Assembly (NCBI GenBank): GCA_024679065.1
Contig: JAGIQG010000026.1
Span: 36,022,001-36,086,000, forward strand
Source: Sphyrna mokarran
Taxonomy: Eukaryota
Direction of reading: 5' to 3'
DNA length: 64,000 nt
Part shown: piece after piece, positions 43,814 to 46,800 of the stretch
How the letters are laid out: every line of letters begins with the position of its first letter
Position numbering within the stretch: the stretch's first letter is position 1
The notes under the pieces: generated by a model
The model's input: only the letters and a program-made list of their open reading frames with translations
Told to the model about the DNA's origin: nothing
Databases searched by the model: none
Made by a program: the position numbers and the translations under genes

Positions 43814-46800
43814 ATGTGGACCTGGTGTTTCTTCTGCTCTTTGGCACTGTGTCTGGGCTGTAAGTACAAACGCTGAAATCTGCTTCTCCCGCAGCAGCAG
43901 ACGGGGACTTGGAAACACTTTCAGACAGTCAATTTATAATGTTTAATCTCTGCTTTCTTACAGATGGACAATCTCAGACTCTGACTCAGCCTCCAGACGT
44001 GACTGTGAACCCGGGAAACACGGCCACACTCGACTGTAACATCGGAACGGTTGATAACAATACTGTGTACTGGTACAAGCAGACCCCAGGAGCAGTTCCT
44101 CAGTGGGTCCTCTATTATTATTATTCTCACAATGCCCCCACCTATGGTCCTGGGTTTAGCAGCGACCGTTTCACATCGACAGCCAACAGCGGCCACAACA
44201 TTTACAAGTTAATCGTAAAGAACGTGGAGGTGAATGATGCTGCCGTCTATTACTGTTACAAGTGGGTCTCCTCAAGAAGTACTTAGTGCCACAGTGACAA
44301 AAGGTAAAACAAAAACTGAGATCAAAGAATAGTGAATAATTAATGACTATCTGATAAAACTCTACAATAATATACATTTAATAAAATCACTTTAATTTTA
44401 TTGTTTCAGTTTTGTTCGAAATTACATAATTTCATAATTCATTGTTCTGAATCTCACTCCTCACTGTTGGATGTTGATGATATTTTACTGTCAGGGTGTG
44501 GGTGTGTGTCTGAGTTCATTCCTTGCTGTCCTTGGCCAGTTGGGACACTGAGAATGTGTGAAATCTGTTTCAGATCTTCAATTTCAATATTAATGTGTTT
44601 TCTGTCTGATTTCCAGGACTGGGGATAACTGTATGAACTGAGCCCTAGAACATCACACTGTGAATGAATTTGGCCAAGGGACCAAGCTCTTTGTTGCAGG
44701 TAAGTGACTGCAAATTCCCTCTTGAAAAATCCAGATGTGAGTTTAAAAATGAATTAATTTAAACTGTTATTCCTTAGCATCTAATTGTTGGATAATCATT
44801 TGCAGATGAAAATTTGTGCTGTTCTGTGATTCTACCTCTGACGGTTAGAATAGTTCCTGTTTCACTTCTGGCTGAATTGCTACAGCTCTGCTTATTAGTG
44901 CTGTGCTTTCCTTTTGATTTTATTATTGTCACATGTATTGGGATGCAGTGAAAAGTATTGTTTTTTGCTCTACACAGACAAAACATACTATTCATTGAGT
45001 GCATGGGGGAGAAGGAAAGGAGAAGGTGAGGATATCGTGTTGCAGTCATGGATGGAGAGAAAGATCAGCTTGGTATAAAGTAGGTCGACTCAGAAGTCTG
45101 ACGGCAGCAGGAAGAAACTGTTCTTGAGTCAGTTGGTATGTGATTTCAGACTTTTGTATCTTTTCCCTGACGGAAAAAGATGGAAGAGAATGTCTGGAGT
45201 GCATGGGGTCCTTGATTATGCTGGCTGCTTTTCCAAAGCAGCGGGAAGTGTAGACAGAGTCAATGGATGGGAGGCTGGTGTGTGTGATGGACTGGGCTGC
45301 CAAATTAATAGAAATTCAAACATTTCATTCTCCTAATTCCCTGTGAGCATTTTTGTTATTCAGTTAGTGCAGACTGATTTTGGAACAGTGTTTTTATTTC
45401 CCAAGTGATGGCGAAACAGATAAATTGTGACTTTGCCACATGCCCAGCCCCACCCCTGCCCCTGCCAGCAACCCCCCCAGTGGTTCAGCTGATGAATAAT
45501 AATGGTGGGAATATCTTACACACTTCAATACACTGGGTAAATTAATAATAGAGAATATATTTATTTAAAAAAAACACCCAATCATGTCATCAGATGTTTC
45601 ACATTGTTGAGAATACTTTTGAGGTGAATTCACTGCCACACAAATGCAGCAGTCACTTATTACACAGCAATGGAATCAGTGACCAGCTTGTATTTATTTT
45701 CCACAGTATTAGTTTAGAGGAGAAGACTGCAATTGGGCATTGCAAACAGAGCAGCCTCAGTTTAAAGTATTTGAAAGAATTTAGTTCTGTATATGTTGAT
45801 GATGGCTTTCCTTTAGTACTGCACAGAAGCATTGATCTCACTCTAGATGTCCTTCTTTCTCAGCCTTTTGGCTAAGATTAAGTGTTTTATCGATATGCTG
45901 TGCTGAGTTGAAGTCATTAGGTTACATTTCAGCTTCATTTGAAGCAATTTTTAAAAGCTGAGATGCAAATGAGATCAAGCCTTGGAGGAGGAGCTATGCC
46001 TACTCCAATCAGCTTGGATCATATAGATCCAGCCCAAGACAGGAGGTGAGAACCCTGTCTTTTGTCAGCTTGGATCAGGAATGTCCCAACTTGTTGAGAC
46101 TCTGAATTGGACTTGATTGGAATAAAAACAAAAAAAGTCCTTCTACCCAACTTGATCACTGATTCTAGATCAATTTAATATCATGGAGATCAGAGTTCAC
46201 CATTCAGCCATTCATTGCCCCCTCAACATCCCTCCCAATTCTGATTTGCATTGTGATTTCGAACTCTGATGCACATTTACCTGATCTCATCCTGAACCTG
46301 CAATAAGACATTTTACATCACATAATGACCACAGTTCATTAAAAATTAATGATTATATTCAGGGATTTGAGACATTGCTGCTGTTCTATGTCACTCTAAA
46401 GTAATAATATACAGATGCCGGCGTTGGATTGGGGTGGTAAGAACTCAGTAAGAATTTAGCAACACCAATTTATAATCCAACCGATTTATTTGATAGTAAA
46501 AAAGTAATAATCAGGCATTTGCTACCAGTCCCAAAATGTCTGTTACAAACAAACTAAAACCCACTGTGGGTCCAGACCTAGAAAATGAGCAAAGTCACCT
46601 AACAGATTGAATCACTGTCACCAAAAAAAGACCAACTCCCTCAGAGAAACTCTATTACAAAACCAATGTCATTATGAAAGCTGATAGATAAACAGAATTT
46701 CAAATTTGAGAGAACTCAATACCCTCACCTACACTTTTTTAAAAGGTGTAATGCCAAAAGTGACTCATGGAGTTGAAACACACTCTCACTTCCTTAAAAT

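Follow-up and report, generated by a model that had tools for sequence, protein, structure and literature searches.

A U2-headed, SINEU-like retroposon family of Sphyrna mokarran with copies in U2 genes at the insertion site of a Keno-like LINE

The U2 snRNA-like sequence in an immunoglobulin light-chain intron of Sphyrna mokarran raises the question of whether it is a single chimeric insertion or one copy of an snRNA-headed SINE family and, in the latter case, which promoter and which copying enzyme would serve such a family. The window, i.e., the whole stretch of 64,000 nucleotides analyzed (contig JAGIQG010000026.1), holds four tandem immunoglobulin light-chain V-J-C clusters between positions 179 and 63844, with V at about 300, 26800, 44000 and 60300 and C at 4161, 29495, 48563 and 63464. 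This V-J-C layout of light-chain clusters is typical of cartilaginous fishes. The clusters encode V-set and C1-set domains. The copy occupies the J-C intron of the third cluster in sense orientation, and the AATAAA of the copy follows the J of that cluster at a distance of about 1.4 kb. As the first-pass annotation had proposed, it is a 280-bp insert (45857-46136) flanked by an 8-bp direct repeat, GTCCTTCT, at 45849-45856 and 46137-46144; the coordinates hold, and an exact 8-base repeat at the junctions exceeds chance, a score of at least 8 being reached in 0.07% of 1,500 mismatched flank pairs. No empty paralogous site was found for the copy: its left flank is single-copy, and the intron stretch is absent from the three other light-chain clusters of the window. 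The copy diverges by 5.4% from its family consensus and is a dead, dispersed, ordinary insertion.

All parts of the copy are on the plus strand. The head (45857-45891) corresponds to U2 nt 6-40, as compared to nt 1-40 in the family alignment, and has 88.6% identity to L031, an intact U2 gene of the same genome that served as U2 reference (189.7 bits on RF00004); its last base lies two nucleotides beyond nt 38/39, where Keno and Utopia insert (PMC4640811). A U2 head had been recognized before, but its extent had been given as nt ~6-34; since the match to L031 extends to nt 40, the body starts at 45892. At the Rfam U2 cut-off the window gives no match, the copy alone scoring below it. Behind the head lies a degenerate inverted repeat of U2 nt 11-39 (45895-45923), predicted from fold, pair probabilities and pair counts to pair with the head over the branch-point recognition sequence (nt 33-38), and then a short predicted hairpin (45932-45945). 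According to the family alignment, 45957-45971 is the remnant of a second internal U2 unit, which spans U2 nt 4-27 at 96% identity in the consensus and is mostly deleted here, consensus 106-124 being missing. The internal sub-repeats and the A-rich tail seen on first inspection are both present. The sub-repeats are parts of module 1 (45972-46020), which begins like U2 nt 24-31, continues with a variable hairpin and ends like U2 nt 49-60, and of module 2 (46025-46076), which is built in the same way as judged by fold and shuffle-tested alignment. A hairpin at 46083-46100 aligns with the position of U2 stem IIb; in the family consensus, one C-G pair of this hairpin has become T-A. The 3' tail (46101-46136) comprises short repeats, of which consensus 282-291 is missing here, the AATAAA at 46121-46126, and an A-run with a C interruption common to most copies. 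The internal deletion of the window copy was considered as a subfamily mark and rejected: 22 of 30 window-like copies are deleted there with differing ends, and only L003 has both ends the same. Among unbiased copies, 5 of 50 have a deletion in or beside this consensus stretch.

The element is not a one-off chimera, because its family has many copies and joins U2 to the body at a fixed position. A DNA search with the element returned 3,283 candidates, of which 40 were scored, the best full-length matches having 81-89% identity; exact motif searches across the genome found 417 head-body junctions and 910 tails, with none in the controls. The expectation of a multi-copy family sharing the U2 junction is thereby borne out. 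On contig C1, 5 of 31 junction matches were also among the 55 tail-motif matches, from which a family size of about 4,900-5,600 copies was estimated (95% range 2,700-16,700), a figure that is probably low. The consensus of 313 nt was built from 82 copies; unbiased copies diverge from it by about 8% (range 4.4-18.7%), and subfamilies with common sequence changes are present. In size and type the element is a SINE (<500 bp, non-coding, A-tailed and multi-copy) and, with its U2 nt 1-40 head, agrees in sequence with the definition of the SINEU class.

The ends of the copies point to RNA-mediated insertion. Twenty-one of 26 copies selected by their tails have their 5' end in U2 nt 1-30, and the other five are 5'-truncated at scattered points. 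Among the 86 loci of the end analysis, from which four tail-selected loci duplicating junction-selected ones had been removed (90 before removal), 16 start exactly at U2 nt 1 and only three scored at 0 to -2; none of 30 element copies continues upstream as LINE. Clear duplications of 7-18 bp were found in 16 of 81 copies as compared to 0.4% of control pairs, a count that includes L009, which is false because it is a tandem head, and L083, which is A-rich; most copies have none. The clean target-site duplication noted for the window copy is thus not a family trait. The downstream flanks of the 81 copies have no sequence in common, and a U2-like target preference is absent from the dispersed copies (about 3 of 12 bases match). 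Within L300 (1780-1803), an inversion has turned the internal U2 hairpin around at its own position, and L275 (2272-2593), located behind U2 3-57, has very many A-to-G changes and 67% identity to the consensus, a pattern that looks like RNA hyper-editing before insertion; L084 (2449-2746) may be similar. At L073 (G000:C882:63,913,950-63,914,770), three tandem element units lie inside one 12-bp duplication, the second beginning at nt 39 and the third further in, which may reflect either self-targeting or template jumping.

The body had initially been described as non-U2, a view that did not stand: shuffle-tested alignments traced most of it to U2. Modules 1 and 2 are homologous to each other (0/500 shuffles) and to a sister family in the same genome (0/500), and through the sister family to U2 nt 49-140 (0/500). 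Moreover, an old-subfamily copy aligns directly to U2 nt 44-107 (2/500), whereas direct alignment of the young consensus modules to U2 is no better than that of shuffles (196/500). By way of the sister family and the old subfamily, U2 nt 24-31 and 49-60 can be assigned to the sub-repeats and stem IIb to the final hairpin. The sole stretch that is not colinear with U2 is the one after the head, a decayed inverted copy of the head itself. No pieces of U1, U4 or other small RNAs were found in the body, Rfam comparison over eight loci being significant for U2 only. Judged by these alignments, the body is mostly remodelled U2, consisting of a second U2 unit, two modules and stem IIb. The sister family (L208:1276-1516 on the minus strand, L214, L221 and L113:1303-1506) has a single head of U2 1-31 and one module and keeps the Sm-site region of U2; its copy L113 ends with U2 nt 39-53 and an A-run. 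A monomer form, in which U2 1-26 is fused directly to module 1, occurs at L212 (1276-1516, minus strand) and is either ancestral or the result of a deletion between two U2 units.

A U2-derived body, together with the extra U2 piece that precedes the head proper in L098, L140, L275 and L280, would be expected if the copies were independent chimeras made by template switching of U2 RNA onto a body without a head, or if they were remnants of a host gene for a U2-like RNA. We regard this as the least credible of the alternatives and as largely refuted by the junction, which is fixed at nt 40 in all 417 exact copies. Furthermore, headless bodies are a minority with scattered truncation points, the consensus contains no Sm-site motif, and the common changes of the subfamilies speak against it as well.

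The consensus folds at -108.7 kcal/mol (z -4.7, 0/100 shuffles) and the window copy with a z of -2.1. In the consensus fold, U2 nt 11-39 would be covered by the strand after the head, and the branch-point recognition sequence, unpaired in U2 itself, would thereby be hidden; the pairing probability of nt 34-38 is at least 0.94 in the element consensus and at most 0.11 in U2. Over 15 pairs of the inverted repeat, 6 of 6 departures from perfect pairing are G-U compatible (Fisher p 0.028). The reverse complement of the consensus also folds well (z -3.9), which counts against masking, and covariation of the masking stem is not above that expected from column make-up (454/500 shuffles, based on 20 copies with one misaligned row, L229). 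The model predicts masking of the U2 head by an element strand, and with the branch-point sequence hidden the element RNA would not act as a faulty U2.

Insertion of Keno and Utopia leaves U2 resuming at nt 39 (PMC4640811). A genome-wide search for U2 nt 39-52 preceded by an A-run gave 19 matches, seven after the element, seven after the 3' end of a resident LINE, one after the sister family and four unrelated. The suspected link to a Keno/Tx1-type element is supported insofar as a Keno-like LINE uses the same U2 nt 38/39 site as the element. Targeted searches, which do not give a rate, found 16 distinct copies in which U2 sequence beginning at nt 39-42 comes after the element tail, the match being only short or imperfect in two; among unbiased loci, one of 85 3' ends was a real case followed by U2 nt 39. 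The element copies L140 and L280 duplicate U2 39-47 or 39-48, and a LINE insertion duplicates U2 39-59.

The resident LINE encodes RVT_1 (reverse transcriptase) and zf-RVT domains, and its APE-type region has 38-40% identity to the APE-bearing N-termini of P0007/P0008; a direct Pfam scan of LINE pieces of 83 and 120 aa gave no match, and no named Keno protein was among the 120 matches listed for the LINE. It is called Keno-like from its 3' junction at U2 nt 39 and its APE-type region with reverse transcriptase, and would work like Keno rather than Utopia since it has an APE-type region. U2 was matched by 15 of 17 LINE 5' ends examined, i.e., most full-length copies have U2 heads. The LINE is mostly dispersed and broken, with 150 scored reverse transcriptase matches across many contigs, and neither an intact LINE nor an intact source element was present in the 20 LINE regions examined. 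At C993, L083, L094 and L137, insertions of the LINE and the element are stacked at a single site, and such stacks also occur at non-U2 sites. The 3' similarity to a Keno/Tx1-type LINE that had been envisaged was not found, as element and resident LINE have no tail sequence in common, and the element resembles the 5' end of the LINE weakly (6, 9, 74 and 135 of 300 shuffles); on these two grounds, the element does not qualify as an internally deleted non-autonomous derivative of the LINE. Separately, at L168/L169 (G000:C224:20,009,014-20,014,160) a variant U2 upstream region precedes a Keno-like LINE that is full in length but broken and has a U2 1-33 head; at G000:C1548:102,145,300-102,163,000, each of three 5.9-kb repeats, nearly identical to one another (95-98%), contains one broken LINE copy; and at L083, L094, L108 and L119, T-rich heptamers resembling one another come after LINE or element tails that lie outside U2, and may represent a secondary target.

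The upstream region of the intact U2 array was found at eight loci, six with uninterrupted U2 and two with the element at nt 38-40; in what follows, a promoter at a source copy means homology to the flanks of intact U2 genes. At C949:17,389,775, 39 kb from the U2 array, both U2 flanks of the element match the intact array (0/500 shuffles each), and at C557:766,5xx the element lies behind the U2 upstream region and is cut by a LINE fragment. Together with C993:93,103,8xx and C927:559,7xx, these are the four upstream-linked copies, all of them decayed or broken (about 83-84% to the consensus, or cut by LINE fragments), and none of the four intact U2 array genes contains the element. A second, variant U2 spacer was found at 11 loci, ten with a U2 head and none intact: the LINE occupies six of these ten, the element another two, one of which also contains a piece of the LINE, and two break off at nt 55-58; all ten are broken at nt 20-59. 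No intact gene of the variant type was found. The notion of a master copy inside a U2 array is accordingly upheld in part: four copies do sit in U2 genes behind the upstream region, but all are decayed and none is an intact source. Remains of the variant tandem array, with short spacer, lie at G000:C927:557,400-560,400, C993:93,103,000-93,105,100, C1548:101,854,000 and C113:19,962,700, and every copy there is broken by LINE or element.

In six dispersed copies (L084, L116, L215, L280, L281 and L308), the 3' terminus consists of U2 39-46/53 and a second A-run. A pattern search for free U2 fragments that stop at nt 47 and carry an A-run gave seven matches, four of them unrelated; the number of such free fragments was zero exact and one with one mismatch. 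Because free U2 fragments of such shape are nearly absent, the most suitable interpretation of these tails is read-through of a source copy that lay within a U2 gene. A distance of about 20 nt past AATAAA is usual for Pol II polyadenylation. Copies followed by long U2 3' parts may just as well have inserted into old U2 pseudogenes. The tails also bear on whether the element could be an ordinary SINE with an internal Pol III promoter evolved from U2 sequence. An A-box-like motif at consensus position 123 and B-box-like motifs at 141 and 194 would suit such a SINE, the box motifs being loose, but T4-T5 runs at consensus 15, 76, 97 and 120 would stop Pol III, and the AATAAA and the read-through into U2 fit Pol II processing. 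We consider a Pol III origin very improbable; internal T-runs have likewise been used as an argument against Pol III transcription of SINEU (PMC4494074).

On the basis of these sequence comparisons, we propose that the SINEU-like element is probably transcribed from U2 promoters and mobilized in trans by the co-resident Keno-like (Tx1-type) LINE, which uses U2 nt 38/39. The element, which appears to have no promoter of its own, would rely on the promoter of the U2 gene to drive its source copies; at a copy positioned behind a U2 upstream region, as observed, U2 nt 1-38/40 would become the head of the transcript. The copies with a second A-run suggest that the RNA would be cut and polyadenylated about 20 nt after the element AATAAA, within U2 nt 46-53, and the Keno-like LINE would subsequently act on it in trans. 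A relaxed LINE endonuclease may then direct most copies to unrelated sites, such as the light-chain J-C intron, and a small share would re-enter U2 genes, renewing the sources by homing. Such re-entry would restore the promoter and explain the repeated U2 heads. That most copies have no U2 read-through piece would fit priming on the A-run templated by the element itself, which has the common C interruption. It is likely that insertion into U2 at the LINE site gives promoter-less elements both a promoter and a copying enzyme.

The main rival, which we judge unlikely but clearly ahead of the other two, is that a general L1/Tx1 LINE spread a SINEU-like element whose transcription was driven by unrelated promoters upstream of it, and that the insertions of the element at U2 nt 39 are occasional dead ends made by a Keno-like enzyme. 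The location of most copies at non-U2 sites, with duplications variable or absent, and a tail without homology to the Keno-like LINE would be expected from such a history, and crocodilian SINEU-2 is transcribed from flanking non-U2 sequence (Kojima, 2015; PMC4494074). By contrast, full-length copies stop at the U2 start site, nt 1, hardly any of them scoring just upstream of it, six dispersed copies carry the U2 piece with the second A-run, and the LINE is itself mostly dispersed and has non-U2 sites in common with the element. Since there is no U2-like target preference and only 1 of 85 3' ends is at U2 nt 39, another L1/Tx1 family could have made most copies.

Transcription from U2 genes and mobilization by the Keno-like LINE, as favored here, can be compared with known systems. 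Crocodilian SINEU-1 and SINEU-3 resemble the shark element in being short and non-coding, with a U2-derived head, repeated U2 units, an A-rich tail and variable or absent duplications, and most copies of SINEU-2 are likewise without duplication (PMC4494074). SINEU-3 is a remodelled U2 gene, the body of the shark element being mostly remodelled U2, and the crocodilian elements have a Tx1-type partner with U2-headed copies, Tx1-11_Crp carrying a U2 head like the resident LINE (PMC4494074). Contrarily, SINEU has a preference for Mariner-N4 (Mariner-N4_AMi) and a link to Tx1-Mar (PMC4494074), whereas the shark element has copies in U2 genes at nt 38/39. Compared by description, the shark element further differs from SINEU in the site common with the Keno-like LINE, the U2 read-through tails and the predicted head-masking strand. 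In Keno (Tx1 clade, APE endonuclease, U2-specific) and in Utopia (RLE, same site), U2 resumes at nt 39 and insertions stack in tandem, as here, and the ~20-bp duplication of reptile Utopia and the loosened specificity of crocodilian Utopia resemble our findings (PMC4640811, PMC4494074). Unlike Keno and Utopia, the element is non-coding and has no tail in common with the LINE. In rDNA, R2 has internally deleted non-autonomous derivatives. Like the shark element, R2 is promoter-less and relies on a host gene (co-transcription cited in PMC4494074); the shark element differs from the R2 system in that its target is a Pol II snRNA gene, its copies are mostly dispersed and its body derives from the target RNA and not from the LINE. 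CmiSINE and SacSINE1 are also short non-autonomous retroposons of sharks, but they have tRNA heads, A and B boxes and L2 tails (PMC5499810), as compared to the U2 head of the element. The available text of that source has no mention of snRNA, SINEU or Tx1, and a shark counterpart was found in none of the available portions of PMC4640811, PMC7245038, PMC5381603 and PMC5499810. The earlier suggestion that the family is undescribed in sharks agrees with our search of the published literature, which gave SINEU in crocodilians only, Repbase/Dfam, Repbase Reports and subscription journals being outside its scope.

A wider reading, which we advance tentatively and hold to be somewhat short of probable, is that of a homing SINE with the promoter as its target: made from U2 and carried by the LINE into nt 38/39, it would with each such entry again acquire a Pol II promoter along with a new head, be polyadenylated in the host gene and fold away its splicing sequence, and it would have arisen in cartilaginous fishes independently of crocodilian SINEU and answer how snRNA-headed SINEs are transcribed. 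In the available text of Kojima (2015; PMC4494074), SINEU is reported from crocodilians only and the transcription of snRNA-headed SINEs is left open, since U1 and U2 promoters lie upstream of the RNA. The family described here offers a testable route, namely sources placed inside U2 genes via a U2-targeting LINE, with read-through tails as their trace. If true, this would be a second vertebrate origin of the snRNA-headed SINE class and, as all ten headed loci of the variant type are broken, a parasite that damages U2 genes. Furthermore, the family may serve as a source of presence/absence markers for shark phylogeny.
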